Of a stretch of 64,000 nucleotides of DNA, positions 1,840-39,501 are shown piece after piece (within the stretch, counting starts at the first letter, position 1; every line of letters begins with the position of its first letter). The stretch is from a bacterium (lineage in GTDB: Bacteria > DRYD01). The translations under genes were made by a program, and so were the position numbers. The notes beneath the pieces are model-generated. The model worked only from the letters and a program-made list of their open reading frames with translations, did not search any database and was not told where the DNA came from. The stretch lies in the NCBI GenBank assembly GCA_030549815.1, contig JAUQQQ010000004.1, positions 85,827-149,826 on the forward strand, in the 5' to 3' direction.

Positions 1840-2964
1840 TTACTCAGTAAATATAATTTTTCTTCTTCTTGTCAATGGTGGCAAATCATCCATATCTAAA
1901 CTAAAGCTTGGCTTAGTTTCAGAAAATCCAAAAATAGATTCCTTTCTACTTTCTTTATTAAAAGCGGTCTCTGGAAATTCAGTAGCTATAAGTATTATTT
2001 TAACTTCATCTTTCAAATTTTCGTCTAAAGTAGCACCGAATATTATTTTGGCATCAGGGTCAACAGCCTGATATATAATATTCGAAGCTTTATTTATTTC
2101 AGTTAAAGTCAAATCATTACCACCAATGATGTTAAACAATACTCTTTTAGCTCCTTCTACTTTCATTTCAAGCAGAGGACTATCAACAGCCTTAAGAGCA
2201 GCCTCTTCAGCCCTATTTTCTCCCTTAGCTACGCCTATACCCATCCAACAGCTTCCAGAATCTTTTAATATAGACTGAATATCTGCAAAATCTATGTTTA
2301 TCAACCCAGGTTTTAAAATTATTTCAGTAATACCAACAACACCATGCTTTATAACACTATCAGCCAATTTGAATGAATCCATCAAAGTCGTCGTCTCTTC
2401 AGCAATCGAAAATAATTTATCGTTAGGGATTATAATCATAGCATCAACGTTGGGTTTTAAATTATTAATTCCTTCTTCAGCAATAATCCTTCTTATTTTT
2501 CCTTCAAAAGAAAATGGTTTGGTAACTATAGCAACAGTGAGTATTCCCATTTCTTTGGATATAGACGCGATGATAGGGCTTGCTCCTGTACCAGTTCCTC
2601 CACCCATACCAGCAGTGATAAATACCATATCCGCTCCATCAATAGCTTTCTTTATCTCATCAATACTTTCTTCTGCCGCTTTTTTGCCTAATTCAGTATC
2701 AGAACCAGCCCCAAGCCCCTTCGTAGTATTCTTCCCAATATGCAATTTTTGAATCCTATCAGGTAAAGCTAACAAAGCCTGCGCATCAGTATTAACTGCA
2801 ATAAAATCAACTCCTTTAACATTATCTTGAACTAATCTACTAACGGCATTACATCCTCCTCCACCAACTCCTATAACCTTTATGTTAGTAAACCTAACCT
2901 CCTCTTGATTTATTCTTCTCTTTTCTATCCTCTCGTTTTTTTCATTATTCATCTCTTTTTCCAT
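1840..2964 (-). CDS. ftsZ: Cell division GTPase FtsZ
   Basis: IKVIGVGGGGCNAV, NTDAQAL, GMGGGTGTG, INIDFAD and the C-terminal DLPP core peptide. Confidence 0.98.
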   Translation of the reverse strand: MEKEMNNEKNERIEKRRINQEEVRFTNIKVIGVGGGGCNAVSRLVQDNVKGVDFIAVNTDAQALLALPDRIQKLHIGKNTTKGLGAGSDTELGKKAAEESIDEIKKAIDGADMVFITAGMGGGTGTGASPIIASISKEMGILTVAIVTKPFSFEGKIRRIIAEEGINNLKPNVDAMIIIPNDKLFSIAEETTTLMDSFKLADSVIKHGVVGITEIILKPGLINIDFADIQSILKDSGSCWMGIGVAKGENRAEEAALKAVDSPLLEMKVEGAKRVLFNIIGGNDLTLTEINKASNIIYQAVDPDAKIIFGATLDENLKDEVKIILIATEFPETAFNKESRKESIFGFSETKPSFSLDMDDLPPLTRRRKIIFTE

Positions 2965-8261: not shown

Positions 8262-8301
8262 ATAGAAGGTTAAGTTTGATTTTTTATTGAATTAAAATTT
8301 T

Positions 8302-9312
8302 ATGAAAGCAATAGTTAATAGTCCGATAATTATTAATTTTGAAACAAACGAATTTCTTGTTTTGGATCAATTATTATTACCATTTGAGGAAAGATATATT
8401 GAATTAAAGACGGTAGAGGATGTGTATAGAGTTATAAAGAATATGAATGTTCGAGGAGCTCCGTTAATAGGTATAACTGCATTAATTGGCTTGTATTTAA
8501 GTCAAAACATATATAAAGATATGGAGTATTTACAATCTGCTCGCCCCACAGCAGTAAATATATTTAACTATTTTAATCAACTAAAAACTTTACTAAAAAA
8601 CTCAACTAACATTCGGGAAACGATTAAAAAATTTATATTAGAAACAATAAAACAAGAAGAAGAAAAAAACTTGAAAATATCAGAAAATGGCTACAGGTTA
8701 ATAAAGGAGTTAGTTAAAGATAAAAATGAAATTAATATTCTGACACATTGTAACACAGGTTCGATAGCAACAGTAGGATTAGGAACAGCATTAGGTATAA
8801 TAAAATATTGTCATAGGCAATTTTTGAAAGATGGTAAAAAAATTTTTGTATGGGTAGATGAAACCAGACCTTACCTACAAGGAAGCAGATTAACAGCCTG
8901 GGAATTAGAAAAAGAAGGAATAGATTTTAAGATCATAACAGACAATACAGCAGCTTTCGTTATGAGTAAGAATTTAGTAGATGTTATTTGTGTAGGAGCA
9001 GATAGAATAGCGAAAAATGGAGATACTGCAAATAAAATAGGAACATTGAATTTGGCAATTTTAGCAAATTATTTCAATATTCCGTTTATCGTAGCAGCAC
9101 CATCTTCATCCGTTGACAAAAACCTCCCTAACCTCAATAATTTCCCAATCGAAGAAAGAAATAAAGATGAAATCATAAAAATTAAAGGAATAAATATAAC
9201 AAAAGATGAATACAATGTATTCAATCCATCATTTGACATCACACCCGCAAATTTAATAGATTACATTGTTTTAGAAACAGATTCTTATAGCAAACCTTTT
9301 GAATTTAGCTAA
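8302..9312 (+). CDS. mtnA: S-methyl-5-thioribose-1-phosphate isomerase
   Basis: LDQLLLP, VRGAPLIG, ARPTAVN, LTHCNTG, ETRPYLQGSRLTAWEL, NKIGT, NPSFDITP. Confidence 0.95.
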   Translation: MKAIVNSPIIINFETNEFLVLDQLLLPFEERYIELKTVEDVYRVIKNMNVRGAPLIGITALIGLYLSQNIYKDMEYLQSARPTAVNIFNYFNQLKTLLKNSTNIRETIKKFILETIKQEEEKNLKISENGYRLIKELVKDKNEINILTHCNTGSIATVGLGTALGIIKYCHRQFLKDGKKIFVWVDETRPYLQGSRLTAWELEKEGIDFKIITDNTAAFVMSKNLVDVICVGADRIAKNGDTANKIGTLNLAILANYFNIPFIVAAPSSSVDKNLPNLNNFPIEERNKDEIIKIKGINITKDEYNVFNPSFDITPANLIDYIVLETDSYSKPFEFS

Positions 9313-12202
9313 AACAACAATGATGATATTAAATTTTTTAAACTTTCTAAAAAATAATTTAAAAAAATATAGGTTTTACTTGTTTTTTATAATAATAGAT
9401 TTACTATTTTTTCTACCAGTCTTAATTAATAGGAAGATAATAGGAAGTGTAGATGCTTATAACCAATTTTATCCTTACTTATTGCATTTGCATGATGGAT
9501 TAAAACAATTTACAATACCCTTATGGTGGCAATATACTGCTCTTGGATACCCATTTGCAGGAGTAGTTCAAAGCGGAGTTTTTTATCCAATTAATTATCT
9601 ATACTTTTTCATTCATCCCTTATACGGTTATAACTTAGTTTTACTTCTTCATTTCCTGTTCCTACAAATTGTTACATTCCATTATTTCGATTATTTATTA
9701 AAGAAGTACTTTAGTAATAAGTCAGAATTAGCTTTTTTAGGATCAATAATGTTTTCCTTTAGTCTATTTGTTTTAGTTAGATTAGATATTTATCCATTTA
9801 TTTTATCAATGCCATATTCGATATTGAGTTTATTAATAATAGAGAAAATGAAAGATGAAAAAGATAAAAGTTTATTCTATATACTTTCATTAGCTTTAAC
9901 TTTCGGTTTATTATTCTTATGTGGGTATCCTCAACTTTTTGCTTACACACTTCTTTACATTTTTATATACATTGTACATCTATTTATAAAAGAAAAAATA
10001 AACAAAGAAAAGAATGAACATTCATTAATCTTATTAAAAAACTTAATAATTTCAATAATTCTAACTTTACCTATTATTTCAATTCAACTAATATCCACTT
10101 TACCTTTATTAGATCAAAGCTTAAGGAAATACACAAAAGATTTCTTTTTCAATCAACATAGTTATCAGCCAGAAATGTTAATTACAATGATTCTACCCTA
10201 TGTTTTCGGCGGTATGGGCAAAATAGACTATTTTGGACCTGATAATGAATTTGTAGAATTAGCAAGGGAATACGTTAATTTTATATCCCTCATTTCAATT
10301 CCAACTTTTTTAATCGGAATCTACAGGATAATGAAATACAAATATAAAGAATACAATTTTTTAATATTAATATTATTAATTTTCCTATTGTTAAGCTTTG
10401 GTAAATATACATTAGTTAGTTATTTATTATACTTTGTTCCCTTTTTGTCAGATTTAAGAGTTCCTGCAAGGAATATGTTTTTTGTTGATTTATCATTAAT
10501 TTTCATTTCATTAATAGGAATAGATTACTTTTTAAGATTATTAAGATATAAAACCGGTATCTTTAACAGATTAAAAATTTTTACAAAACTATTTTTAATC
10601 CCCCCTTTTGTATTATTTTTTATAATTTTTACATTCTCCAATCTAAAAACTGAAATAATAGATACAATAATTAAAGAAACAATATTAGGTTCTTTCTTTT
10701 TAATAATTTTATCGTTATTTTCAATAGCTTTTCTTTTTCAAAAAATAAAAAAATATCAAGTATTAATAATATTTATTGCAATATTAGTAGTAGTAGAGAA
10801 AACATTTTTGTTTTTTTCTCAACATTATTTGAATTTAAGTATAGGTAATATAGCAATTAAAAATAAAGAATCTTTATTAAGAGGTAGTAATCAAGAAAAT
10901 ATAGAATACAATTATTTTATTGATAGTTTTAGCATTATTAATCTTATTTCAAAAAATGAAAACACAAGAATAATTAACATATATGATCCTTTTGTCAGTA
11001 GAGATTATTATTATATTTTTAATATAGATTGGGGAAATAGGTTACCCTTACCATTTCTTTATGGCTTAATACAAAATAATTTAATACTATCAACATTTGG
11101 AGTCAATAGAATTGTTTTGACAGAAGAGAATATAAATAAGGTTATTCAAAATATATACTATACAAATTTTAAAACATTTTCAATAAAACAGGAAAATTTA
11201 AAAACTAAAACCAATCCAGAAAATTCAATAGAAATAAAATTCAATAATACACAAAACTCAAATTTATTCATACTAGAATACGAAATTTTAAAGCAACAGA
11301 ATAAGACAAATATTTCCAAAAAATTGAAAAAATTAATATTGGAGAAAAACAACCTATTACAGATAAATGTAAATAATCAATATTTAATTTTAAGGTCAAT
11401 AGAGCCTTTAATTAAAGAAAAAGTAATTGAAAACACAAAAAAATTTTCAAATGCTTCACAATCTCAAGAGATAGTTGATCATATAACAATACCTTTCTTT
11501 AGTAAAGCCAAAGAAATTACTATATTAATAAATCCTAATTTAGAAGAAGGTATAACGATAAAAAACATAAAAATTTATTCCTATCCACCCAACAAAATAC
11601 CAAATCTATATCTAAATAACAGTTCAAAGGTATACGAAATCACTAAAGACAATGTTGATAATACTACTTTACAAAATTTAGATATATACAAAAACAACAA
11701 TAGTTGCCCAATTATTTATAGTATAAAAAATGTAAAGATAGTCAAAAATATAGAAGAATTTAAAAAAATTTTGCTACTATGGGAAATAAACCCACTTAAC
11801 ACTGTCTGCATAGAAGAAAACGAATTAGAAAAAATAAAAAAAGAATACCAATTTTTGGATGAGATAGAAAAAATTGAATTTAACAAAGTGGAAATAGAAA
11901 ATATTGAATTTTTCAATAAACCTGATCAAATAAGCTTTACTGCTAAAGTTAAAGACAAAGGGATAGTTGTGATAAATGATTCATTTTTTGATGGATGGAA
12001 ATGTTCTGCTAATGATAAGGAAATACCAGTCATAAAAGCAAATGGATTAGTTAAATGCATTATTCTGAAAGACGGTATAAACAAAGTAATACTGAAATTT
12101 GAACCATTCTATAAAAAATTCCTATTTCTACCATTTTTATTTATCCTTGTTTACATAGTAGGAATTTTAACAGAGATTAGAAGGAAGCCTAACACAAGAT
12201 AA
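9299..12202 (+). CDS. YfhO-family (GT-C fold) membrane glycosyltransferase
   Basis: N-terminal DAYNQFYP...PLWWQY...GYPF...FYP; many TM helices; RVPARNMF; C-terminal INDSFFDGWKC...ANGLVKCI...LKFEP. Start may be the ATG near 9320. Confidence 0.8.
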   Translation: MNLAKTTMMILNFLNFLKNNLKKYRFYLFFIIIDLLFFLPVLINRKIIGSVDAYNQFYPYLLHLHDGLKQFTIPLWWQYTALGYPFAGVVQSGVFYPINYLYFFIHPLYGYNLVLLLHFLFLQIVTFHYFDYLLKKYFSNKSELAFLGSIMFSFSLFVLVRLDIYPFILSMPYSILSLLIIEKMKDEKDKSLFYILSLALTFGLLFLCGYPQLFAYTLLYIFIYIVHLFIKEKINKEKNEHSLILLKNLIISIILTLPIISIQLISTLPLLDQSLRKYTKDFFFNQHSYQPEMLITMILPYVFGGMGKIDYFGPDNEFVELAREYVNFISLISIPTFLIGIYRIMKYKYKEYNFLILILLIFLLLSFGKYTLVSYLLYFVPFLSDLRVPARNMFFVDLSLIFISLIGIDYFLRLLRYKTGIFNRLKIFTKLFLIPPFVLFFIIFTFSNLKTEIIDTIIKETILGSFFLIILSLFSIAFLFQKIKKYQVLIIFIAILVVVEKTFLFFSQHYLNLSIGNIAIKNKESLLRGSNQENIEYNYFIDSFSIINLISKNENTRIINIYDPFVSRDYYYIFNIDWGNRLPLPFLYGLIQNNLILSTFGVNRIVLTEENINKVIQNIYYTNFKTFSIKQENLKTKTNPENSIEIKFNNTQNSNLFILEYEILKQQNKTNISKKLKKLILEKNNLLQINVNNQYLILRSIEPLIKEKVIENTKKFSNASQSQEIVDHITIPFFSKAKEITILINPNLEEGITIKNIKIYSYPPNKIPNLYLNNSSKVYEITKDNVDNTTLQNLDIYKNNNSCPIIYSIKNVKIVKNIEEFKKILLLWEINPLNTVCIEENELEKIKKEYQFLDEIEKIEFNKVEIENIEFFNKPDQISFTAKVKDKGIVVINDSFFDGWKCSANDKEIPVIKANGLVKCIILKDGINKVILKFEPFYKKFLFLPFLFILVYIVGILTEIRRKPNTR

Positions 12203-16777: not shown

Positions 16778-17911
16778 CTACGTATTTTCAATTAAAACTG
16801 AGTATCCACCGCCACTACCTGCACAAACCATCACAACAGCTTTTTTATAATTATATTTTTTCATACCTATTATTGAATTTATAACCAACCGTGCTCCAGT
16901 AGCCCCAATTGGGTGCCCAAACGCAACAGCTCCACCAAATATGTTCGTCCTACTATAATCCAATTCCAAAATCTTCATATTCGCAGCTAAAACAGCAGCA
17001 AACGCCTCATTTATCTCCCACAAATCTATATCATCCTTCGAAATAGAATACTTCTTCAATAACGACTTGGTAGAAAGAGAGGGAACTATCGGAAAATTCT
17101 CAGGCTCCTCAAAACTTTCAGCAAAACCAACTATCCTACATAGTGGCTTTAAATCATACTTTTTCAAAAACCTCTCAGAAACCAAAAGTAAAGCAGCAGC
17201 ACCGTCAGCAAGTGCAGAAGCATTACCCGCAGTTATCGTAGCATCCTCCCTCCTAACCACAGGTTTTAAACTTGCCATTTTGTCTTTACTTACATCCAAC
17301 CTTATATTCTCGTCAATACTACCATTAGGATTTTTAACAAAATTCTGAGGATTAGAATTCCAAAACTCAGCAGCACGCTTATGACTGTTATAAGCCAATT
17401 CATCCTGCTCTTCTCTACTTATACCATATCTTTTTGCAATAACTTCAGCAATCTCAATCATCAACTTATTAGTAACTGCACATCTTAACCCATCAGTATT
17501 AATCGAATCTTCCAATACCAAATCCCCGTATTTATTCCCCATCCTTGTCCTTACTAAAAACGGAGCATTAGTCATACTTTCAACTCCACCAGCAATTACA
17601 ACATCATACTCAGAACTAATAATATTTACATACGCAGTTTGTAATGCTTTAATAGGAGATATACAAACCTGATTAACAACAAAAGCAGGTGTGTTTATAT
17701 TCATTCCAGCTTTAATTAATGCTTGCCTTGCTAAATTTTGCCCATTACCAGCACCTATCACATTACCTAAAATAACCAACTCAACAGGATAAGAAAACCT
17801 TGAAATAATATCCTTAATTACCAGTGAAGCAAGATCCGAAGCTTTGTAATTACTCCATACACCTCCTATCCTACCAAAAATCGTGCTACTATAATCAACC
17901 ACATAAACCAT
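16778..17911 (-). CDS. Acetyl-CoA C-acyltransferase (thiolase)
   Basis: NQVC, GGVESM, TAGNAS, EINEAFA, GHPIGATG and MVCAG; both catalytic Cys and the His are present. Confidence 0.93.
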   Translation of the reverse strand: MVYVVDYSSTIFGRIGGVWSNYKASDLASLVIKDIISRFSYPVELVILGNVIGAGNGQNLARQALIKAGMNINTPAFVVNQVCISPIKALQTAYVNIISSEYDVVIAGGVESMTNAPFLVRTRMGNKYGDLVLEDSINTDGLRCAVTNKLMIEIAEVIAKRYGISREEQDELAYNSHKRAAEFWNSNPQNFVKNPNGSIDENIRLDVSKDKMASLKPVVRREDATITAGNASALADGAAALLLVSERFLKKYDLKPLCRIVGFAESFEEPENFPIVPSLSTKSLLKKYSISKDDIDLWEINEAFAAVLAANMKILELDYSRTNIFGGAVAFGHPIGATGARLVINSIIGMKKYNYKKAVVMVCAGSGGGYSVLIENT

Positions 17912-18421: not shown

Positions 18422-21184
18422 TTAAGTTTTTACGGTTTCAACAAACATTTTTAAAACCTTACTTTCCTCTTCTAACATATCCATCTCATCTATTTCTTCT
18501 TTTGATAAGTTCTTTTTATTTTTCAAATAATACAATCTTTGACCGATTTTTTGCAGATATTCCTTCAAGGTAATCTGAATAGATTCCTCTCCATAATTTT
18601 TAAGGAAAGTATCGACTAAATTAGAGAATTTAGAATAGAATTCACTGTCGTTCATTCTCTTAAGGAGCTCAGAAACAACCTCTTGCTTATTACTTCCCAA
18701 ATCTATTTTTACATTATCAATATAAACAACAAAACTAAGTCCTTCTTTTCTAACCAATTCAAATACTAAACTCAGATAAACGTATAGCAATTTTTGTATT
18801 TCCTTTTGATCTTTCTCATCCTCAAGAGTTAGATTTTCAACTTTTTGATATACAGAATCTATATGCAATCCCGGGTCGGTATTAACCAATTCCAAATAAC
18901 ATCTTTCCATAACATCGATAAGAACATAAGCATATAAAGGTAGTCCATGTTTTACTTGTAGCATAGAAATCCTATAGGGATTATAATTTTCTATAACTTC
19001 GATATTGTAGGCTTTAGCAGTGTTAAAAAACCTGCTTTTATTAATATCCTTTACCCCCATAACTTTATAATGCTTTACATAAGAGTTTTCAAATAACTGA
19101 GAATCGTACCTATATAGGATAGTTGAAGATCTTAATAATCTACTAACAACCTCTTCTTCATTACCAAATATGTATATAACCTGGTCCTCGATATCTGAAT
19201 AGAGATAATCTTTATAATTTTCTTCTACAAAATCTAAAAGTGCCTTTTCATAGTCCTTAAATTTATCATATTTCATGTTAACAAAGCTGTCAAATAATTT
19301 ATATAGATTACTATTGATTCTGTTTTTATCATTTTCAATAATCATTTCCAATTGTTTATCTATCATTTCTCTGTTTGCCACATAGAAGTTTATTCTATTT
19401 CCCCAACTACTTGCTCTGCATACAAAATCTATTTTTAGATACTCAGAAATATAGTCATTATAAAATTTTTTCCATACATTGTTTATAGCCTCGATATACT
19501 CATCAATATACCTACTAAGAAGCAACCCAAATTTATTATAAAAAAGAATTGCATATTCCTTAATGATGGAATTCATTTGATGATTAGAAAGCTCTGATAA
19601 TGCTTTAGACACTCCTTCAACTAATTTTCTATCCTTTTTGTTAAATAACCTGTTTATTAATGAATTAGATTTTTCAATTAGAGCATTTGAATAAAAATCA
19701 AGGTCCGCAGATAATTTGGAAATCCTATTGTTATGTTCCTCTATCTCTTTCTTTAAAACATCTTTTACTTTTGTTAAATAAGCTATTAAACCATTTTCAG
19801 AATCAGTTAAAACCTTATAAACCAAAAAGAAACCAACAGATGGATTACTTATATATTCATCCATTAACTTTTTGAATTCCTCAAATTTATTCTTAACGAT
19901 TTCGTCGAGATTTTTCTCTAACCTTTCCTTAATCTCACTCAACGTATTTTCTTTGTAGTAAGTAATTATTTTTTCTTTAATCGTCAGTTGCAAATCTTTA
20001 TTCTCAATTTGATAAACTTTTTCACTTATTTCGGAAGGAGATAACAGCTTAAGAGGGTAAAGGTGGTTTATTAAATCGTCAGAGCTTAATTCATCCATTT
20101 TCAATTGTCTTACTATATCATAAACAAAATTAGATTTCAATTCCTTGTTTAAGTAATCATACATAAATTTAACAAGTTTTCCAGCAACGTACCTTTTAAC
20201 ATCCTCATAAGGATAAATAACACTGGAAGTTCCAAATGAGCTATACAAATAGTTTTTATGAGAATAAGGTTGCATCTTTTGAGATTGACTGAGAACAGTA
20301 TAAAGATTATCTTCTGCAGATTTAATATTTGTCCCAACCCCTGAACTAATAAGGATTACAAGTGATTCACTAACAGCTTCTATAGTATCATCTAAACCAC
20401 CAATCGGAAACTCTTCATTTTCATCATCAATAAGATAACAAACATCAAAAGGTTGTTTTTTACTCGAAACTACCCTTGTTTTTGAAAATTGCACTTTGTA
20501 TTCACTTTCATTATTAGGGTTCATATAAAAATCTATTTCTTTGAGAGTAGCATAACCATTAGCAAATATGTGTTTCTTTTCAGCTTCGTCAGATATAGGA
20601 AATGGATGGAAAGCAGTAGGTAAAAACAATATACCTTTAATCAGAGCAGGTATCGCATTTTCCTCTTCTATTACTTTTCTGACAATATAAGCCACATCCA
20701 ATAACATTCCACTACCCGTGCCACCACATGTAGAAGAAATAAGATAAACGTTTATAGTCTTAGAAGCAATCTTAACATCGGCAAACTTCGCCCTCAATTG
20801 CTTTGTAGCCATATCTATAGCATTGAAAACTTTATCCACATTTCTGAATAAATATAGTCTTCCCATTGGTCTGAATTGCTTAGCTCCCTCATCCCCAGAA
20901 ACCACTTTAAAATTCAAATTAGACGGAAACCAAGGCCTAATAAATTCAGCAGATTCAGACCTTAAATTACCAACAATCGAAGAAACACCAGGAACACTAA
21001 CATTAAGATATTCATCAGGTTCTAACTCATTTATCAAAACCTCATTCTTATCAGAGTCGATACAGAAGAACTTGAGCAGAGTCCTGGCATCCTTAGGAAT
21101 CTTTCTTTTCAAACTAACAACTGTTTTTAAACCTGTTCCTCCAAGGCCAATAACAATCGTGGGTATATTAAATTCCATAACCAC
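18422..21184 (-). CDS. Large tubulin-like domain protein (Tubulin_2-type GTPase plus helical region)
   Basis: IVIGLGGTG, IDSD, GAKQFRPMGRL, SSTCGGTGSGMLLD, ANGYATLKE, PFDVCYL, followed by about 550 helical residues. Confidence 0.85.
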   Translation of the reverse strand: MVMEFNIPTIVIGLGGTGLKTVVSLKRKIPKDARTLLKFFCIDSDKNEVLINELEPDEYLNVSVPGVSSIVGNLRSESAEFIRPWFPSNLNFKVVSGDEGAKQFRPMGRLYLFRNVDKVFNAIDMATKQLRAKFADVKIASKTINVYLISSTCGGTGSGMLLDVAYIVRKVIEEENAIPALIKGILFLPTAFHPFPISDEAEKKHIFANGYATLKEIDFYMNPNNESEYKVQFSKTRVVSSKKQPFDVCYLIDDENEEFPIGGLDDTIEAVSESLVILISSGVGTNIKSAEDNLYTVLSQSQKMQPYSHKNYLYSSFGTSSVIYPYEDVKRYVAGKLVKFMYDYLNKELKSNFVYDIVRQLKMDELSSDDLINHLYPLKLLSPSEISEKVYQIENKDLQLTIKEKIITYYKENTLSEIKERLEKNLDEIVKNKFEEFKKLMDEYISNPSVGFFLVYKVLTDSENGLIAYLTKVKDVLKKEIEEHNNRISKLSADLDFYSNALIEKSNSLINRLFNKKDRKLVEGVSKALSELSNHQMNSIIKEYAILFYNKFGLLLSRYIDEYIEAINNVWKKFYNDYISEYLKIDFVCRASSWGNRINFYVANREMIDKQLEMIIENDKNRINSNLYKLFDSFVNMKYDKFKDYEKALLDFVEENYKDYLYSDIEDQVIYIFGNEEEVVSRLLRSSTILYRYDSQLFENSYVKHYKVMGVKDINKSRFFNTAKAYNIEVIENYNPYRISMLQVKHGLPLYAYVLIDVMERCYLELVNTDPGLHIDSVYQKVENLTLEDEKDQKEIQKLLYVYLSLVFELVRKEGLSFVVYIDNVKIDLGSNKQEVVSELLKRMNDSEFYSKFSNLVDTFLKNYGEESIQITLKEYLQKIGQRLYYLKNKKNLSKEEIDEMDMLEEESKVLKMFVETVKT

Positions 21185-21193
21185 TTTCCTCCT

Positions 21194-23719
21194 TTACAAT
21201 ATTACTCTTATTCTTAGCATATCTGCCAAGGATGTTATTTTTCTTTGTAAATTTTCAAACTCCTCCTTATATAATTGTTTAAAAAACTCTTCCCTATCCT
21301 TCAATTGTTTATACATAGAAAACATAACGTTCTGAGACTCCCATAGATTGTAGTTTAAACCTAACTTATACCCAAAATTAATAAAATCAATAATATTGTC
21401 AATAGCACTAATATTTCTATTTTCCAAAATCAGGGGAATCCTTAAAAGCATATCTTTCAATTTTTTTTCAAATTTTCTCTTGATTTTCTCTTCATCCAAC
21501 TTTAAATCAAGTTTGTCCCTATTCAAAATAAAATAAATTATATCCTCATAATTAGGATTAAAGTTCTCCATTAACTTTTCTATTTGATTATCGATAATCA
21601 GCAATGTTATTAATTTCATTTCCAACGGTATAGGTTGATAATTATTATCGATTAGATTACGTATAATTGTTTTTTGTTCAAAAAATATCTCATCAATTTT
21701 TCTATCTATTTCTTTAACATTAGAGTCAATAAGTTTCCTAATTATTTTTCGTCGAACATTTACAAAAAATGAATCCAATGAAAACTTTTCTTGACAATAT
21801 TCATCTATAAAATTAACAATATCTATAAAATTGCCAGATAACAAAAAAGTTTTCAATGTATGGAAAACTTCGGAAGGGTCAAAATCACCAAAACCACCAT
21901 ACAAATTCAAGTTCCCCAAATAAGCAAAAATAAAATTAACGTAACCTTCGGAAAAATCAATCATATTTGTATAACCCACCTTACCTGTACTAATCATATA
22001 TTCACCTTCAACATGTTTTTCCCAAAATTCAACATTCCAAAAACGCCCTAAATTATCAATATTTTTCAAAAATAACTTATTCGCAATAAAAGAAGCAACA
22101 ATCTTATCATTGTCAAAGTAAGCAGTTTTTACAAAATCATTAAATACTCTTAATCCATTACCATAATAGTTAGAAATAGCATCCTTAAGGATAGTCTCAA
22201 CAACAGGCTCTAAATTTATTCCAAAAATCTCCTTAGGCGAAGCCTCCCTTCGGGTAGGCGAAGCCTCCCTTCGGGTAGGCGAAGCCTCCCTTCGGGTAGG
22301 CGAAGCCTCCCTTCGGGTAGGCGAAGCCTCCCTTCGGGTAGGCGAAGCCTCCCTTCGGGTAAGTTTAATGATAGCCCAATAAAGGAACTTCAGATTCTGA
22401 GTTGCTTCCAAACCCGATATATCATCGAAAAACCATCCGCAACTCGTGTACGCAAACATAATATTTTTGTATATCTCCAATAAATTTATAACTCTCTTTG
22501 CTTCCTGACAATCCTCTATACCAAAATCTTCCATAAAAGCACAAACAAAATTAAACAAATCCTCCTTAGTTTTTATTTCATTATCTCTCTTTAAAATATA
22601 CTCTATGTAGTTTTTTCTAATATCTTTGTCTATTTCCATTTTTTTCATTTCATTAATGTATATTTCTTCAAAAGTATTCCTCACACTATCTACAGCAAGC
22701 CTCAGATTCCTTCTCCATTCTTGAGAAGTATTTGGATTAAACCTACATCCACAATTCTCTTTCCATCTTCCTATACCATGAAAACAGCTCCACGATGTAT
22801 TCTCGTTAATTTCTGCTTCATAGATAATTTCGACATTATCAACATAATAACCAAGATTACAAACTTTAACATTTGGGGTAGAAAATAGATAATACAAAGA
22901 ATAAGCCAGTCCCAATTCTCCGAATTTTTTGTGATGTCCATAGGTTTCACCATCAGCAGCAATAACAACAACATCATCTTCTTCTCTAAATTCCGACAAA
23001 ATAGCTTTTCCTAACCTTTCACCATTACTCAATAAATCTTGAAAAGAAACAGCATGAGAAATATTTGAATTATAAGCAAAAACAATAATTTTTCTATCCT
23101 CATCAAGATTCACAATGAAAGGTTTATTGGGAAGATTTCCTTCATTATAAATCCATTGATTACTACCTATCTTTCTAAACCTTTTTATCTGGTGTGGAGC
23201 AAGAATAACAAACTCAATACCGTTTTTACTCAAGTAATTTAATGTTCGTAAATCTACAGCGGTTTCAGGTAACCACATTCCACGTGCATTCCTTCCAAAA
23301 TGATACTCAAAGTCTTTCAACCCCCAATAAACCTGAACATCCAAATCAATGTCATTAGATAATGGCAAAATAACATGATTGTAAGCCTGAGCTATTGCAT
23401 TACCACTACCCAATCTATTGTAACTCAATTTATCAGCTTCAAGTATTTTTTCATACAGCTCTGGTAAATTCCTTTTTATCCAATGCAATAAAGTAGGACC
23501 AAAATTGTAACTAACATACTCCAAATTATTGACAATATTAACAATATAACCATTAACATCGAAAATGCGTGCATAAACGTTAGGAACATAACATTCAAAG
23601 GCAATCCTTTCATTCCAATTTTCAAAAGGATAAGCACTGTCTTGGAACTCTATTTGACCTACAAAAGGATTTTCTCGAGGTGGCTGATAAAAGTGCAAAT
23701 GAAAAATAACATACTTCAT
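21194..23719 (-). CDS. Glycoside hydrolase family 57 (DUF3536-type) carrying an in-frame repeat insertion
   Basis: HLHFYQPPRENP, NFGPTL, YNHVILPL, WLPETAV, DGETYGHH, WSCFHG, SCGWFFDD. Confidence 0.9.
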   Translation of the reverse strand: MKYVIFHLHFYQPPRENPFVGQIEFQDSAYPFENWNERIAFECYVPNVYARIFDVNGYIVNIVNNLEYVSYNFGPTLLHWIKRNLPELYEKILEADKLSYNRLGSGNAIAQAYNHVILPLSNDIDLDVQVYWGLKDFEYHFGRNARGMWLPETAVDLRTLNYLSKNGIEFVILAPHQIKRFRKIGSNQWIYNEGNLPNKPFIVNLDEDRKIIVFAYNSNISHAVSFQDLLSNGERLGKAILSEFREEDDVVVIAADGETYGHHKKFGELGLAYSLYYLFSTPNVKVCNLGYYVDNVEIIYEAEINENTSWSCFHGIGRWKENCGCRFNPNTSQEWRRNLRLAVDSVRNTFEEIYINEMKKMEIDKDIRKNYIEYILKRDNEIKTKEDLFNFVCAFMEDFGIEDCQEAKRVINLLEIYKNIMFAYTSCGWFFDDISGLEATQNLKFLYWAIIKLTRREASPTRREASPTRREASPTRREASPTRREASPTRREASPKEIFGINLEPVVETILKDAISNYYGNGLRVFNDFVKTAYFDNDKIVASFIANKLFLKNIDNLGRFWNVEFWEKHVEGEYMISTGKVGYTNMIDFSEGYVNFIFAYLGNLNLYGGFGDFDPSEVFHTLKTFLLSGNFIDIVNFIDEYCQEKFSLDSFFVNVRRKIIRKLIDSNVKEIDRKIDEIFFEQKTIIRNLIDNNYQPIPLEMKLITLLIIDNQIEKLMENFNPNYEDIIYFILNRDKLDLKLDEEKIKRKFEKKLKDMLLRIPLILENRNISAIDNIIDFINFGYKLGLNYNLWESQNVMFSMYKQLKDREEFFKQLYKEEFENLQRKITSLADMLRIRVIL
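22234..22361. repeat. Perfect tandem array, 6 x 21 bp (TAGGCGAAGCCTCCCTTCGGG) plus a terminal TA
   Basis: Units start at 22234, 22255, 22276, 22297, 22318 and 22339; 14/21 GC; read in the gene as (TRREASP)x6. Confidence 0.98.
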
Positions 23720-24574
23720 CTACATTCCCTCAACTTTCTTCGTATAAATCTTCCCATTTACCTCAAAAACAAGCCATATATCATTTGCTTCCCTAATAAC
23801 TACATTAAATCCTTCTAAATTATACCCTTGCCCAACTTTAACAAAAATATCTTCTCCCTTGTAATCAATTATAGCAAAAACATTGTTAGATATTTTAACA
23901 ACCCCCTTATACTTAAAAGTATCAGGATTAAATTCAGGTTTACTATAAACAATATTCTGATTTGATCCATATGTTTCTGCTTGCTGCTTCAACCGATTTT
24001 CTACTTCCATCTTCTTTTGCTCGTCTTCTTTAACTTTTCTTTCTAACTCAACAAGCTCATCTTTCCAAAACTTCACATTTAAATTTTCCTTACGATTAAA
24101 GTAATCCTGAAAATCTTTTGGTAAAGAATATAAATAAGAAATAACAAGCGAAAGCTCCAAATCTTCATCATAAACATTAACCAAACTAACTTGTTCAACC
24201 TTAAAAGCAAAAGCATTATCATATAAATATCTCATCAAATTGAGAAAGTAATCCCTTTTAATTTTAAAAATTATACTATCCTTGTTATTGTTACTAACAA
24301 CCTGGTTCAATTTAATTATTTGTCTGTTCTCCAAAAAACTAATAAAATTACCAAAATATGCCTTAACATCCTGATAACTAATGTTTGTCTCCGTCTTTGA
24401 CTTAGAATATAAAGAATATAAATTAGACAAAACCAAAATGTAATCATTATATCTCTTTTTCTCAGTTAATAAAATTTTTTGCTTATTTGAAAAATCTTTA
24501 TTAATATAAAAAATAATAAGAGCGACAAAAATTAATATAAGAATTTTTAGAATTAAAAATTGTCTACTTACCAT
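23720..24574 (-). CDS. Putative PilO/PilP-like type IV pilus alignment protein
   Basis: N-terminal TM anchor, ferredoxin-like middle region, coiled coil and a C-terminal beta domain (YKGVVKISNNVFAIID...VKVGQ) like PilP/GspC HR; follows the PilM/N-like gene. Confidence 0.5.
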   Translation of the reverse strand: MVSRQFLILKILILIFVALIIFYINKDFSNKQKILLTEKKRYNDYILVLSNLYSLYSKSKTETNISYQDVKAYFGNFISFLENRQIIKLNQVVSNNNKDSIIFKIKRDYFLNLMRYLYDNAFAFKVEQVSLVNVYDEDLELSLVISYLYSLPKDFQDYFNRKENLNVKFWKDELVELERKVKEDEQKKMEVENRLKQQAETYGSNQNIVYSKPEFNPDTFKYKGVVKISNNVFAIIDYKGEDIFVKVGQGYNLEGFNVVIREANDIWLVFEVNGKIYTKKVEGM

Positions 24575-26953: not shown

Positions 26954-28290
26954 ATATCCTGATAATTTATATCAGTGTAATTCAATTTTATTTGATCAGT
27001 TATAACAAAATTATCAGGAGAAATAGACTCACTTTTTAATTCAACAGGATAACTTTCTATATTCGGGTACTTTGCAACCTTCAGATAATACTTTTCAACT
27101 CTTAAATTCTGAACATTCTTTGAAATCTTCTTATAATCTTGCAAAAGATAATCAAAAATATTCTTGCTGGAAAATATAGAAATATCATCAAGAGTGTTAA
27201 GATTGAAAATATTAACAGCAAACAGATTTTCTTTTAGAGGGAAAAATCCTGAAACCTTCGAATCTATTCCAAATAAATCATTGATTACATAAGTAGCTTT
27301 CAGAGCAAGATTATAATCAAGAATAGCAACAGCAAGCGCAGGTTTTTTGTCGATCATTGTACTAAAGAAAACAAAAATGTTATCATCATACTGGTAAGAA
27401 GAAAGATAAAAATCATCCTCTAAAGTCCCAAAAGCAAAACTCCTAACATAATTCAAATTAGATTTTTTAAATGAAGAAATTAAAATATTACTTTTATCCT
27501 GAGGTTTAAAAGAACGAGTATTAAAGATGAAATAAAAATTATCTTTAGTTTGAATAATATCGGTTATTTCTTCATCAAAACCACCACCAAAAGCAAATGC
27601 CCGCGACACATTAAAATTATCATCTACTACAGCTAACAAGCAATCCTTATTACCCGATAATTTTTGATAAGAAGAAACCAATAAGTATTTTGAAGGAGAA
27701 ATTTCAATTAAATCAAAAGGAGTTTGATCAACAGATGACCCTACAACCCAGAAATTTGTTGGATAAAAATCAGGACCAAACTTGTATATTAAATTACTTT
27801 CAGCTCCAAAACCAACACTCCTTGTAGATCCCAAAAAGTAAGTACCATTCCTAACACTAATAATCTTGGATGCTCTGTCATCCCTTGTTCCAGAAACAAC
27901 GTAATATTTAACCAAATTTAAATCCTTATCAAAAACGCCAACAAGGATATCATCCAAACTTTCCCTTCTGAAACTCCATGTATCACCAATACCGACAAAA
28001 TAATTGTTTACATTATTAAAATCAACCAATTTATCACTAAAAGCTCCACTTAAAATAGAAAACTTCAAAATATCATGTTTAGAATTAGCTTTAAGAATAA
28101 ACCAATCATCACTTGTTTCAGTAAAACTCTTGGTATCCCCAACGATTAAAAATTCATCATCACCCAATCCCATTACCTTTTTTACTTTTTCTATCGACGG
28201 TGCATACATTACTTTCATCTCAACCTGTGAAAATACTATAATAAACAAGGACATCAATAAAACTATAAATGCAATTATTAATTTTCTCAT
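26944..28290 (-). CDS. Exported beta-propeller-like repeat protein
   Basis: Signal peptide; repeated 'G.T.SF...D..+...D...N+....++.G...D' blades. Confidence 0.65.
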   Translation of the reverse strand: MRKLIIAFIVLLMSLFIIVFSQVEMKVMYAPSIEKVKKVMGLGDDEFLIVGDTKSFTETSDDWFILKANSKHDILKFSILSGAFSDKLVDFNNVNNYFVGIGDTWSFRRESLDDILVGVFDKDLNLVKYYVVSGTRDDRASKIISVRNGTYFLGSTRSVGFGAESNLIYKFGPDFYPTNFWVVGSSVDQTPFDLIEISPSKYLLVSSYQKLSGNKDCLLAVVDDNFNVSRAFAFGGGFDEEITDIIQTKDNFYFIFNTRSFKPQDKSNILISSFKKSNLNYVRSFAFGTLEDDFYLSSYQYDDNIFVFFSTMIDKKPALAVAILDYNLALKATYVINDLFGIDSKVSGFFPLKENLFAVNIFNLNTLDDISIFSSKNIFDYLLQDYKKISKNVQNLRVEKYYLKVAKYPNIESYPVELKSESISPDNFVITDQIKLNYTDINYQDIWK

Positions 28291-35902: not shown

Positions 35903-36957
35903 ATCGGTATAACCTCCTCAGGCAAAGTATAAAGTATTAATTCTTCATTATTTTCAAAAACAAAATCTTTATCGATCACAAGATAATTATAAACCCAAAC
36001 ATTCATATCCTTAGAATAAAAAAGATAGTAAAGCTTAGAGTTAGAATAGAATATGAAACTCACATTTGGGATTGAGAAAAAAGGTCTTATTTCTGATTTA
36101 GTCCAATAATAAACAGTTAAATTATTCTTGTTAATTACAAACAAATAGGGATTTGCAAAATAAGAGTAAAAACTTTCTATACTTCCCACTAATTTCATAT
36201 TTAAATTTTGATCGATATTATAAATATTTGCATTTTCGCCCGTCTGAAGCAAAAGATGATTTCTATCTAATAAAATAATATAGAAAACAGAATTATAAAA
36301 AACTTTAACATTATTTTCAAAAATGTCTTTGCTAAAATCCTTTGATATATACCTTATTTTTAAAGTATAATCTTCTTGGTAAATTTGGGACAATTCTAAA
36401 GATACAAAAAAGTTATCACTTTTTAATATTTGCAATAAATTATCAGATTCTACTGTAAAAAGCGGATTAATTAATTTATCTACTTCATACACAAAAATAG
36501 CATTATTTTCACTACCATTTTTTAATTTTTTTAAACCGATTAATTCATCTGAATAATAAACACATGTGAAAGTATCCAATTTAATCTTTTTATATTTGGT
36601 CATCTTTTCAAATATATAAATATTGTTTTTAAAAACTACGAATATATTTTGATCTTTTATAAAATTTCCCATATATTGACTTTCCTCTTTGATTTGAAAA
36701 ATTTTTTGCAATTTGTTTTTTGAAGGGAAAAGCGGTAAAAATCTTGTCTTATATAAAGTCAGAATATTAATACCACTTTCTGTTTGTTGAATAAAATAAG
36801 GTTTGTTATTATAGTAAAAGAAATCGACGATGTTATCAATAAGAATCATCTTTTTTCCATCTTCCACTTGCACTAACGAAGAATCGATGATGAAATATTT
36901 TTCAGAACAGAACGAAAAAGATAAAATCAAAATCAAAAAGATTAATAACCTTTTCAT
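35899..36957 (-). CDS. Hypothetical exported beta-rich protein
   Basis: 352-aa ORF with a signal peptide; GTGA/ATGA-type overlap with pncB. Confidence 0.6.
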   Translation of the reverse strand: MKRLLIFLILILSFSFCSEKYFIIDSSLVQVEDGKKMILIDNIVDFFYYNNKPYFIQQTESGINILTLYKTRFLPLFPSKNKLQKIFQIKEESQYMGNFIKDQNIFVVFKNNIYIFEKMTKYKKIKLDTFTCVYYSDELIGLKKLKNGSENNAIFVYEVDKLINPLFTVESDNLLQILKSDNFFVSLELSQIYQEDYTLKIRYISKDFSKDIFENNVKVFYNSVFYIILLDRNHLLLQTGENANIYNIDQNLNMKLVGSIESFYSYFANPYLFVINKNNLTVYYWTKSEIRPFFSIPNVSFIFYSNSKLYYLFYSKDMNVWVYNYLVIDKDFVFENNEELILYTLPEEVIPI

Positions 36958-37075
36958 CTTATGGAAATATTTCTATACGAACAAAATAACAACCTTCAGA
37001 AAGGTAAGGGAGAAAAAATAGAGAAAAATATAGAAAAGATAAGTAAAAGATAAACCAAAGAGAAGGAGAAAGGTA

Positions 37076-37771
37076 ATGGAGCTAAAAAAAATATCCAAAG
37101 CTTTTGATATACTATCAAAAGCATATGACTTAATTAGTTATACAATGAGCCTTGGTGTTACGATATACTGGAGAAAAAGATTAATAGACGAAAGTGTAAA
37201 ACTAATTAAAAGTGAAACCAAATACATTTTAGACTTATGCACAGGAACAGGCGATATAGCAATCGGAATATACAAAAAATCACAAAACCAGAATATAAAA
37301 ATAATAGGCTTTGACGCTTCATTCGGAATGCTAAAAAAATTCATAGAAAAATCACCAAATAGAGAAAACTTAATCCCCATCTTAGGAGATATATCCCAAA
37401 TGCCTTTTAAAAACAAATCATTTGATATATCAACCATGTCATTCGGAGCAAGAAGCTTATTCGAAGGAGAAAAAGATTTCTCCACATACTTAAAAGAAAT
37501 ACACCGAATATCCAAAAGATTACTTAATTTAGAAACATCACATCCTAAAAACCCAATAATAAAAGCTCTTTACAAATCTTACCTATACTTCATTATTGTA
37601 ATTTTAGGGAGCATATTTTTCCCTCATTATAACAGAGAATACTACAGAACGATAATGACTTTTCCTAACTACGAAAGATTTTCAGAAATACTAAAACAAA
37701 TAGGATATGATAAAGTAGAAGCAATACCTTTATTTTGGGGAATGGCAGCAATACACATAGCCTATGAGTAA
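37076..37771 (+). CDS. ubiE: UbiE/MenG-family SAM-dependent methyltransferase
   Basis: YDLI...S.G....WR, ILDLCTGTGD, PFKNKSFD, FP. Confidence 0.8.
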   Translation: MELKKISKAFDILSKAYDLISYTMSLGVTIYWRKRLIDESVKLIKSETKYILDLCTGTGDIAIGIYKKSQNQNIKIIGFDASFGMLKKFIEKSPNRENLIPILGDISQMPFKNKSFDISTMSFGARSLFEGEKDFSTYLKEIHRISKRLLNLETSHPKNPIIKALYKSYLYFIIVILGSIFFPHYNREYYRTIMTFPNYERFSEILKQIGYDKVEAIPLFWGMAAIHIAYE

Positions 37772-38177
37772 ATACTTAGATAAAATAGCAGAAATAATAG
37801 AAAATATTGAAAAAGTCCAACAAGAGCTATTAGTAGAACAAAAAATGATGAAAAACCTTATCTCTTTACTTAATCAATTTTCGGGAACAACAAAAAGCAA
37901 AACAATAGACCTTGATGATCCTGTCGTAAAAAAAGCAAAAGAAGTACTGTTAAAGCTTATTACATCACTACAGGAAGAATACTACAGATTGGATTTATTG
38001 GAACCTGATGAAAAATGGGCACAATTCCACGAAAAATTTAAACAATCTCTAAAAACCCAAATCGAAGGATACAAAGAAATATTCTTAGTATTTACAGATG
38101 GAAATATTACACATATAAAAGTTGGAAGTATGAAAGTAGAACAAGGATTGAAAATGATAGATATAGATGATGATTAA
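37764..38177 (+). CDS. Hypothetical helical protein
   Basis: 137-aa ORF overlapping both neighbouring genes. Confidence 0.65.
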   Translation: MSKYLDKIAEIIENIEKVQQELLVEQKMMKNLISLLNQFSGTTKSKTIDLDDPVVKKAKEVLLKLITSLQEEYYRLDLLEPDEKWAQFHEKFKQSLKTQIEGYKEIFLVFTDGNITHIKVGSMKVEQGLKMIDIDDD

Positions 38178-39501
38178 AAATTTATCAGAAAATTATTTAC
38201 CTAACGACATACAAGCAGAAAAAGCACTGCTTTCTTCTATAATCTTTAACCCTTCAATAGTTAGCCAAGTTATAGAAAAGATAGATGTAGATGATTTCTT
38301 TTGGCCCGAAAATAAAGCCATATACAAAGCAATACTAAGCTTATATGAAAAAAATATTCCAATAGATATCGTATCAATAACAAATGAAATAAAACACTTA
38401 AAATTAGAAAGCGAGTTAGAATTTGCAGGAGGATTTGAATATTTAGCATCACTATTGGAATTAGTATCTGTCGTTAAATCACACCATCATTATATAGAAA
38501 TAATAAAATCAAAAAGCATAAGGACTAAAATAATAAAAGCAGCACTGGAAACAATACAAGATACTTATAATGAAGAGTATAACATTAATACCATTCTTGA
38601 CAAAGCTCAACGAAGAATAATGGATATATCATATACAACTAAATCCCAAGATTATCATAGCTTATCCGACATACTTGCAAACGTTTTAGAAAATATTGAA
38701 ACAATAGCAGAAGAAGGAGTGGTTGGAATACCCACAGGATTTGAAGATTTAGATAAAATGACGTCTGGTTTACAAAGAGGAGATTTAATAATAGTGGCAG
38801 CAAGACCAAGTATGGGTAAAACAGCATTCGCAATCAATTTGGCATATAATATAGTCATAAAATCCAAACAACCTGTGATATTTTTCTCAATAGAGATGTC
38901 TAAAGAGCAAATAGCTCAGAGATTTCTTTCTCTTGAATCAAGCGTGCCGTTAGCAAAAATAAGAAACGCAACTTTAACAATACAAGATATGGATAGATTA
39001 GCAGAAGCAATATCCATACTTTCAGAACAACCACTGTTTATAGATGATTCTCCCAATTTAACAACAATAGATATTAGGATAAAAAGTAGGAAATTGAAAG
39101 TTGAAAAAAAACAGTTAGGAGCAATATTTATTGATTACTTGCAATTAATAAAAGGAGAGGATAGGTACGAATCAAGAGTGCAAGAATTATCAGAAATATC
39201 CAGATCTCTAAAAGCATTAGCCAAAGAATTGAATGTGCCTGTGGTAGCACTATCACAATTATCAAGAGAAGTAGAAAAAAGGACAGACAAAAGACCATTA
39301 CTTTCAGATTTAAGAGAAAGTGGAGCAATAGAACAAGAAGCAGATTTAGTAATGTTTTTATACAGAGATGATTACTATAACAAAGATTCAAAAAAAGCTA
39401 ATTTAACAGAAGTGATAATAGCAAAACAGAGAAACGGACCTACAGGGTCCATAATCCTTTACTTTGCTAAAGATATACTTAAGTTCTTCCCAACAACATA
39501 A
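38167..39501 (+). CDS. dnaB: Replicative DNA helicase DnaB
   Basis: PTGF.DLD.MT.G, AARPSMGKT, FSIEM, IDYLQL, LSQLSR, SDLRESG.IEQEAD, KQRNGPTG; no intein. Confidence 0.97.
   Translation: MMIKNLSENYLPNDIQAEKALLSSIIFNPSIVSQVIEKIDVDDFFWPENKAIYKAILSLYEKNIPIDIVSITNEIKHLKLESELEFAGGFEYLASLLELVSVVKSHHHYIEIIKSKSIRTKIIKAALETIQDTYNEEYNINTILDKAQRRIMDISYTTKSQDYHSLSDILANVLENIETIAEEGVVGIPTGFEDLDKMTSGLQRGDLIIVAARPSMGKTAFAINLAYNIVIKSKQPVIFFSIEMSKEQIAQRFLSLESSVPLAKIRNATLTIQDMDRLAEAISILSEQPLFIDDSPNLTTIDIRIKSRKLKVEKKQLGAIFIDYLQLIKGEDRYESRVQELSEISRSLKALAKELNVPVVALSQLSREVEKRTDKRPLLSDLRESGAIEQEADLVMFLYRDDYYNKDSKKANLTEVIIAKQRNGPTGSIILYFAKDILKFFPTT

Follow-up and report, generated by a model that had tools for sequence, protein, structure and literature searches.

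We found that a 21-bp unit, of which six identical copies stand in a row in a gene for a glycoside hydrolase family 57 (GH57) protein, is an interspersed repeat specific to one uncultured bacterial species of about 30% G+C, whose nearest named relative is Candidatus Calescibacterium. The array lies in a 64-kb stretch of contig JAUQQQ010000004.1 (assembly GCA_030549815.1; the window hereafter) and the unit consists of a 19-nt core and two junction bases. Its architecture is like that of the repetitive extragenic palindromic (REP) elements: a small putative stem-loop, GG-CGAAG-CCTCC-CTTCG-G (or two 3-bp GNA/TTC mini-hairpins), with GTAG or GTAA behind it. Copying has taken the unit to at least five loci (A, the locus in the window, to E). 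Its presence or absence varies between near-identical strains at two of them, its tandem copy number shifts fast without change in the flanks (0, 1 or 6 at locus A and 1, 5, at least 6 or at least 7 at locus B), and the filled alleles travel on short homologous-recombination patches. The copies in coding sequence are only frame-preserving, stop-free insertions, which add the heptapeptide TRREASP or GEASLRV. With a probability of roughly 0.6 we read all this, as a joint claim, as a new, very short, low-copy REP-like element that is moved by a trans-acting HUH/Y1 enzyme and whose arrays form by slippage or by re-insertion next to an existing copy; the HUH/Y1 step by itself is tentative and, on balance, doubtful.

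The six identical 21-mers had been reported in an earlier note on this DNA, and they were indeed recovered by Tandem Repeats Finder as a perfect tandem array (period 21, 6.1 copies, 100% matches, score 256, unit TAGGCGAAGCCTCCCTTCGGG). Allowing up to three mismatches, a search with this unit gave six matches and no others in the 64 kb, where 100 shuffled sequences gave an expectation of 0. The 21-mers are foreign to the local sequence, as was supposed: 14 of the 21 bases are G or C (67%), against 24-39% in 1-kb windows along the stretch, and the empty alleles described below hold no copy. On the mRNA (minus strand) the insert reads (ACC CGA AGG GAG GCT TCG CCT)x6, that is (TRREASP)x6, at residues 453-494 of the host protein; the unit is open in five of its six reading frames. 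The phase of the 126-bp insert is ambiguous by 2 nt, and 22234-22359 fits equally well. Pfam identified GH57 (PF03065) and DUF3536 (PF12055) in the host protein, and the insert splits the DUF3536 match in two. A comparison with GH57 orthologues had been proposed as a check on the empty site. The 42 inserted residues were missing from all seven aligned orthologues (36-98% identical), none of which carries an ancestral single copy. The placement of the insert in a probable loop was likewise borne out by an AlphaFold2 model (shallow alignment of eight sequences, mean pLDDT 75.6, pTM 0.69), which predicts a disordered coil (pLDDT below 50) for residues 456-496, between helices 437-454 and 504-512. 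By this model the insert most likely forms a disordered loop that the protein tolerates; no solved homologue was found by sequence.

In the 90%-identity cluster of the GH57 protein there are alleles of 799 (several), 806 and 841 aa, corresponding to 0, 1 and 6 copies of the unit. The empty-allele DNA, AAACTTAGGGAGATT, was found in L001 and L027-L032 (ENA, JGI and Logan assemblies), and the six near-identical strains with this empty site confirm that the array is a clean in-frame insertion. The earlier reconstruction of the restored site as K-L-K-E-I was right about the clean empty site but not about its sequence, as the ancestral site is K-L-R-E-I (AGG) in all sampled empty alleles. The base responsible, T22233 (C in the empty alleles), changes AGG into AAG and so places Lys for Arg beside the insert; it is part of a divergent patch. 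Between the window and the empty alleles L027-L032 there are 9 differences in 2,400 nt, of which 8 fall at gene nt 1281-1416 and 7 of these 8 are synonymous. Because the differences cluster around the insertion point, the insertion at locus A must ride on a short imported haplotype patch. The few single-nucleotide polymorphisms (SNPs) seen across 14-20 kb between near-identical strains are likewise clumped in short patches. SNP patches at window positions 19076-19091 and 27964-28004, together with the one around the insertion (Table 1), point to frequent short-tract recombination in the population. The 806-aa allele (P0127/L026, Logan ERR14373512) reads AAACTTA-CCCGCAGGGAGGCTTCGCCTA-AGGAGATT, which is one unit at the exact site of the array, with GCA where the window units have GAA (one base). 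Apart from the unit it is 100% identical to the window across the gene and it carries the same divergent patch; the copy number (1 versus 6) therefore changed without other change.

The 128-bp array is just over the common maximum assembler k (127) and perfect repeats are assembler-prone, so that an assembly or sequencing artefact had to be considered, together with plain slippage of host sequence. Neither can be credited. An artefact is ruled out because independent assemblies show 0, 1 and 6 copies, the single copy occupying the identical site in an independent Logan assembly, and the unit was also seen in JGI, ENA, NCBI and Logan assemblies at loci beyond A. Slippage would require a starting copy, which the empty alleles do not offer: in a slippage-driven variable-number tandem repeat (VNTR) the unit arises from local sequence, and AAACTTAGGGAGATT holds no unit. 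The six copies at locus A may be a lower bound, since the array is about as long as the maximum k and contigs break inside the array at locus B. Arrays of this kind break short-read assemblies, and copy numbers in metagenome-assembled genomes are therefore unreliable.

The earlier suggestion of a dispersed element was also upheld, the 19-mer being present at four other loci, where it is read in two frames or lies outside coding sequence. An exact scan of JGI metagenome contigs for the 19-nt core gave 18 matches, of which 14, from contigs with 40-73% G+C, appear to be due to chance. The other four were in contigs of 28-30% G+C, where the 19-mer is not expected by chance, and these A+T-rich contigs represent three further loci. 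Loci B-E were rebuilt by exact cluster look-ups and contig retrieval. Their flanks are unrelated, which makes it unlikely that the five loci stem from one segmental duplication.

Locus B is a 618-aa open reading frame (ORF) of unassigned function, adjoining NTase/HEPN pairs, in which the unit is inverted and read as GEASLRV. Five copies were found in L037 (NCBI GCA_041640495.1) and P0178, one copy in L019 and P0177, and at least 5.8, at least 6 and at least 7 copies at the contig ends of L038, L039 and L040, respectively. Alleles with one and with five copies have identical flanks in an alignment of 356 bases. Ten contigs end inside this array; six Logan contigs end about 28 nt into it, and the break lengths are k-mer-sized. 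Some alleles of the locus-B gene are without about 140 bp and end early (...KLKWFFR; L019 ~8300 compared with L037 12301-12440), so this gene is perhaps in decay in some members of the population. Two locus-B proteins, P0163 and P0178 (L037 13449-13754), are named 'Candidatus Micrarchaeia archaeon' by NCBI (MEM2175234.1 and MEM2175237.1); contig mis-binning is probable, as the organism encodes bacterial L9, L19, FtsZ, DnaB, SurA and flagellar rod proteins.

At locus C, a DUF2851 gene, alleles of 255/256 aa contain one TRREASP and alleles of 248/249 aa none. The filled DNA reads TCT ATT CTT ACC CGA AGG GAG GCT TCG CCG AAA and the empty DNA TCC ATT CTA AAA or TCC ATT CTC AAA. At locus D the one copy follows the stop of a 454-aa gene at a distance of 6 nt and is separated by about 10 nt from the right edge of a variable 1.4-kb segment; a second allele of this locus was not found in the contig look-up. 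The variable segment (L077 6003-7421) encodes a 454-aa putative lipoprotein, and most strains have an unrelated 85 bp there (L070 7147-7231). Locus E is a 292-bp insertion (L080 2170-2461, equivalent to L086 ~9290-9580 on the reverse strand) that was present in four samples and absent from others. The filled and empty states combine differently in different samples: in ERR14373512 locus A is filled and locus C empty, and in ERZ27245615 locus A is empty, locus C filled and locus B expanded, from which it follows that the loci segregate independently in one species.

The junctions were read with the unit oriented as GGCGAAGCC... (Table 1), and the flanks proved regular at all loci, with a T-rich TTA or TTC on the 5' side and TA(A/G)G on the 3' side. 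The TA target duplication proposed in the earlier note turned out to be a property of arrays only: TA-core-TA occurs only at A, B and the E-type junctions, whereas loci C and D read TC-core-TA, so that TA...TA is not a target duplication and cut-and-paste transposition with duplication of TA was rejected. Immediately 5' of the core, loci A and B have an A and loci C and D a C. This base must thus belong to the copied element, so that the unit is at least 20 nt long and comes in two sub-types (A-type and C-type). The 3' side is always GGG-TA-(A/G)G and thus forms a GTAG/GTAA tail, GGG-TAG-G following the core at loci B and D, in unit E-c and at all internal array junctions, and GTAA following it in the last unit of A, at locus C and in unit E-d. 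On the side opposite the tail the solitary copies have TTAG or TTCG. Viewed on the CCCGAAGGG strand, CYTA stands directly 5' at four of four solitary loci (CTTA, CCTA, CTTA and CCTA) and there is no duplication, but n is only 4 and the empty alleles of locus C have TCTA or TCTC. Arrays occur at loci A and B, both of the sub-type in which the end of the unit forms a target-like junction anew, and loci C and D, which have solitary copies only, show the other one; as this compares two loci with two, a link between sub-type and arrays is only suggestive.

These junctions suggest how a REP-like element might spread. New copies would arise by sequence-specific insertion beside T-rich TTA/TTC...TA(A/G)G (on the other strand, 3' of CYTA) without target duplication, and the most plausible agent would be a trans-acting single-strand-DNA enzyme (HUH/Y1, RAYT- or TnpA-like) encoded elsewhere in the genome. 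The arrays would then grow and shrink by replication slippage or re-insertion. Re-insertion of the element beside itself is conceivable since the TA-type unit, by ending in CCTA/GTAG, produces a new target-like junction. Slippage accounts for the arrays as well as the repeated insertion or rolling-circle copying suggested in the earlier note. The element is probably neutral or selfish and does not serve the host proteins. A bolder version, in which the 21-nt unit is an active transposable unit, the smallest known, that is moved as single-stranded DNA by a trans-acting HUH enzyme and builds heptapeptide arrays by self-adjacent insertion, is in our opinion decidedly unlikely.

Several observations weigh against the reading as a mobile REP-like element. 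Only five loci were found, one of them in the 64-kb window, whereas REP families usually count tens to hundreds of copies per genome, and three of the five loci are intragenic. The unit had been described as highly structured, a claim that nearest-neighbour folding did not support: the fold is a weak stem-loop with a 5-bp stem CGAAG/CTTCG and loop CCTCC (GGAGG on the mRNA) at -3.9 kcal/mol (z = -1.0), and 26-28 of 200 shuffled sequences folded as well. An alternative fold of two 3-bp GAA/TTC (GNA) mini-hairpins is present in the sequence and is not scored by the nearest-neighbour model, so the stability of these mini-hairpins lies outside this test. GNA mini-hairpins (GCGAAGC/cGNAg) are specially stable, and the variant unit of L026 breaks the 5-bp stem and keeps the GNA loop. 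The GTAG follows the body in solitary copies instead of preceding it. No RAYT, TnpA or other transposase or recombinase was found in the window or among the genes of about 150 kb of other sequence fetched from this species; the earlier note had proposed to look for a RAYT or IS200 tnpA nearby. De novo insertion events were not observed, and all filled alleles may be old. Finally, none of the sampled empty/filled pairs differs by 21 bp alone: at both loci with such pairs there is an extra substitution 0-2 nt from the junction, which leaves the ends of the element and its target ambiguous by about 2 nt, and conversion-like copying may be the mechanism.

An alternative is an explanation without any dedicated transposition, in which the 21-mer was copied by rare template switching or short-patch illegitimate or homeologous recombination from a reservoir array, either that of locus E (in the 292-bp element, which resembles a palindrome-associated transposable element, PATE) or the long array of locus B, and was then spread by transformation, homologous recombination and slippage. 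This would fit the extra junction substitution and short divergent patch that all filled alleles carry relative to the sampled empty alleles, the resemblance of the filled flank at locus A (TCTCCTTA) to the flank of the locus-E array (CTCTCCTTTTTA), the very low genomic copy number, the lack of a transposase in the window and fetched loci, and the observation that loci C and E, which are about 1 kb apart, are never both filled. We nevertheless regard it as unlikely, as the same 19-21 nt are found at five unrelated targets with sharp ends and similar junction bases, the microhomologies at the junctions are only 2-5 nt, and there are two sub-types, A-type and C-type, with two loci each, as would be expected of a replicating family.

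Locus E raised another possibility. Its empty site is CAAAACTTTAC|CTATG, the insertion having taken place after TTAC, and the filled element ends in ...GGAGGTCAC. The left arm includes four repeats resembling the unit, of which one is perfect, two have 2-4 mismatches and one is both truncated and mismatched; these repeats stand between the arms of a palindrome (CTCTCCTTT/AAAGGAGAG). The left arm folds strongly as single-stranded DNA (z = -3.0). The right part is G+C-rich and RNA-like, with a match to the Rfam family HgcC of 26.9 bits (E = 2e-4), under the gathering score of 50, and there is an A+T-rich promoter-like spacer carrying the direct repeat AAGGAATATAATATA. The HgcC family shares a right-end tetraloop motif with IS1341-type (tnpB) elements and with PATE-derived RNAs (PMC4615843), and the 292-bp insertion is a candidate IS200/IS605-type PATE. 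The solitary units could accordingly be by-products of such an element, namely the left-end repeats of the HgcC-RNA-bearing insertion, peeled off and pasted elsewhere by its TnpA. The insertion after TTAC, the strongly folding left arm with its unit-like repeats and the HgcC-like 3' RNA would all agree with this. It is very unlikely all the same, since the HgcC match is below threshold, the 292-bp element is known as a single copy, its target is TTAC, unlike the junctions of solitary units, tnpA and tnpB were seen neither in the window nor in the fetched loci, and the units may have inserted into the loop of an older palindrome.

Selection by the host was considered as well, the unit then being a protein or RNA module, a DNA-binding or uptake site, or an mRNA hairpin that tunes translation. 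In the GH57 mRNA the fold of each unit is CGAAG-GGAGG-CUUCG, whose loop presents a Shine-Dalgarno-like pentamer, and arrays are kept in several samples. The occurrence in two frames and in both orientations, and also in non-coding DNA, speaks against such a role, as do the facts that all orthologues, and most strains at loci A and C, are without the unit, that copy number varies freely and that no conserved partner feature was found; we consider host selection extremely improbable. The use of two frames and the existence of non-coding copies led us to reject selection at the protein level.

The unit was found in no other lineage in scans of the GTDB representative genomes, IMG/VR and the JGI metagenome contigs. 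Among the GTDB representatives, which do not include this species, the exact 21-mer gave 0 matches, and the 19-mer and the degenerate 23-mer TACCCGNAGGGNGGCTNCGCCKA gave only chance-like matches in high-G+C genomes; the best GH57 relative in these genomes is 56% identical. IMG/VR gave 0 matches to the 19-mer or the degenerate 23-mer. A five-frame peptide concatemer, when compared with a set of 5.8 billion proteins, found one unrelated low-complexity protein, in a set that is limited to cluster representatives and in which both known array-bearing proteins are hidden behind representatives that have either no array or a single copy. The DNA and peptide strings of the unit were not found in the full-text literature searched, and Rfam gave nothing on the entire window at E <= 0.01. 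A fragment of a structural RNA as the source of the unit was rejected, no source copy being present among the A+T-rich contigs from the scans.

The closest known system is that of the GTAG-tagged REPs, a likeness by which membership is not established. Such REPs are probably mobilised by RAYT transposases of the Y1/HUH type, whose genes typically have the repeats on their flanks. The SMAG repeats of Stenotrophomonas, which are GTAG-type REPs, measure 22-25 nt. In general REPs are stem-loops of 20-40 bp with an unpaired GTAG tag, found as singletons, as head-to-tail tandems and as intragenic copies, some of them inside small palindromes; their families can be species-specific and the intragenic copies add short peptides (PMC3733652). 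The 21-bp unit is within this size class and shares the occurrence as singletons and tandems, the intragenic peptides and the copies within a palindrome; it may also share the small stem-loop body and the GTAG-type end. It differs in that REPs are mainly extragenic, that its stem is only 5 bp, that GTAG/GTAA stands 3' of the body in solitary copies whereas the classical REP tag is 5', that it forms perfect arrays of 5 to at least 7 units within genes, and that no RAYT was identified with it. The host, moreover, belongs to a deep-branching A+T-rich lineage and the element is far richer in G+C than the genome. The analogy with REPs and with the Rickettsia palindromic elements (RPEs), drawn in the earlier note, is a reasonable comparison, except that in solitary copies the GTAG does not precede the hairpin. 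RPEs are palindromic repeats that are found in frame in unrelated protein-coding genes and are tolerated as extra peptide segments (PMC10969869), and the unit likewise sits in frame in unrelated genes as a probably tolerated peptide. However, RPEs are about 100-150 bp long, encode a conserved module of 30-50 aa, show no tandem amplification and number dozens per genome, whereas the unit is 21 bp, belongs to another lineage and has no sequence relation to them.

The mobile G+C clusters of yeast mitochondria (e.g. GC42) are a striking functional analogue. They occur as single elements and tandem arrays, use short targets, and their mechanism is unresolved (PMC4478555, citing Weiller et al. 1989). 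Like the unit, they are G+C-rich hairpin micro-elements in A+T-rich DNA that are polymorphic between strains and either single or tandem; unlike the unit, they are organellar, 30-60 bp long, flanked by a 2-nt AG target duplication, present in hundreds and mostly intergenic. With the IS200/IS605 PATEs the unit may share the hairpin-based single-strand logic and the insertion next to a tetranucleotide without duplication, and locus E resembles a PATE and carries units, but a solitary unit of 21 nt is far below any known pair of left and right ends and too short for canonical ends, the junctions are not TTAC and TnpA was not found. Miniature inverted-repeat transposable elements that duplicate TA (IS630/Tc1-mariner type, e.g. 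Correia) differ by terminal inverted repeats of at least 15 bp, which the unit does not have (the whole element measures 19-21 nt, and its 9-nt halves share only the inverted CGAAG), and by the TA duplication that is missing at loci C and D. Coding minisatellites or VNTRs share the perfect in-frame 21-bp units and the strain-variable copy number without flank change, but here the unit is foreign to the local gene and an identical unit is present at unrelated loci.

If the unit is truly mobile, the size limit of a self-propagating DNA element falls to about 21 nt, and insertion, tandem expansion and spread by recombination can be read from natural populations (0, 1, 5, 6 and at least 7 copies in public samples). 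It would also extend REP-like elements to a deep-branching, uncultured, A+T-rich lineage, where they are mainly found within genes and lead to heptapeptide-repeat polymorphism in enzymes. As an active transposon, the 21-nt unit would represent a natural way of writing variable peptide loops into the proteins of an A+T-rich thermophile. If it is not mobile, it is a modest curiosity, an indel family spread by recombination.

Table 1. Coordinates of the array and its host gene in the window, and junctions of the unit at loci A-D
Feature	Position	Strand	Sequence or basis
Host gene, GH57 + DUF3536 glycoside-hydrolase-family protein, 841 aa (799 aa minus insert)	21194..23719	-	ORF list, Pfam, orthologues, alleles
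Six 21-bp units, all identical	22234..22361	.	+ strand: TA-(GGCGAAGCCTCCCTTCGGG-TA)x6
19-nt cores	22236-22254, 22257-22275, 22278-22296, 22299-22317, 22320-22338, 22341-22359		
126 bp without counterpart in empty alleles	22236..22361	-	Alignment with 0-copy L001, L027-L032 and 1-copy L026
Divergent haplotype patch around insertion	22178..22439	.	8/9 nucleotide differences vs empty alleles
Junctions, locus A			5' tctccTTA, core, 3' TAAGttt
Junctions, locus B			5' tattTTA, core, 3' TAGGaat
Junctions, locus C			5' tttttTC, core, 3' TAAGaat
Junctions, locus D			5' aaatTC, core, 3' TAGGtat

The window is otherwise ordinary chromosome, with ftsZ, dnaB, the genes for ribosomal proteins L9 and L19, flagellar rod genes and sbcC. 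Directly downstream of the GH57 gene, at 18422-21184 on the minus strand, a 920-aa Tubulin_2 (PF13809) protein is encoded that is kept in all strains examined; a canonical FtsZ is also encoded in the window (1840-2964). At 24404-24422, in the ORF at 23720..24574, the 9-bp unit AGAATATAA is present in 2.1 copies, one more than in L001, L026, L027 and L031, which is an in-frame slippage indel. L001, which is about 97.5% identical, has some 590 bp extra at its positions 16857-17449 relative to the window (~16750), including a 120-aa PDDEXK_9 ORF and two G+C-rich islands. In L033 a lone G+C-rich 30-mer, taGGCCTCCAGAGGGAGGAGGGGGTGGCCCta, was found at 8263-8292 inside an M_Eco57I_C gene and may be a second kind of micro-insertion. 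Gene orientation and the sign of the GC skew both switch at ~36000-38200 of the window, closely upstream of dnaB (38167-39501); this switch may mark a replication origin, or an operon boundary only.

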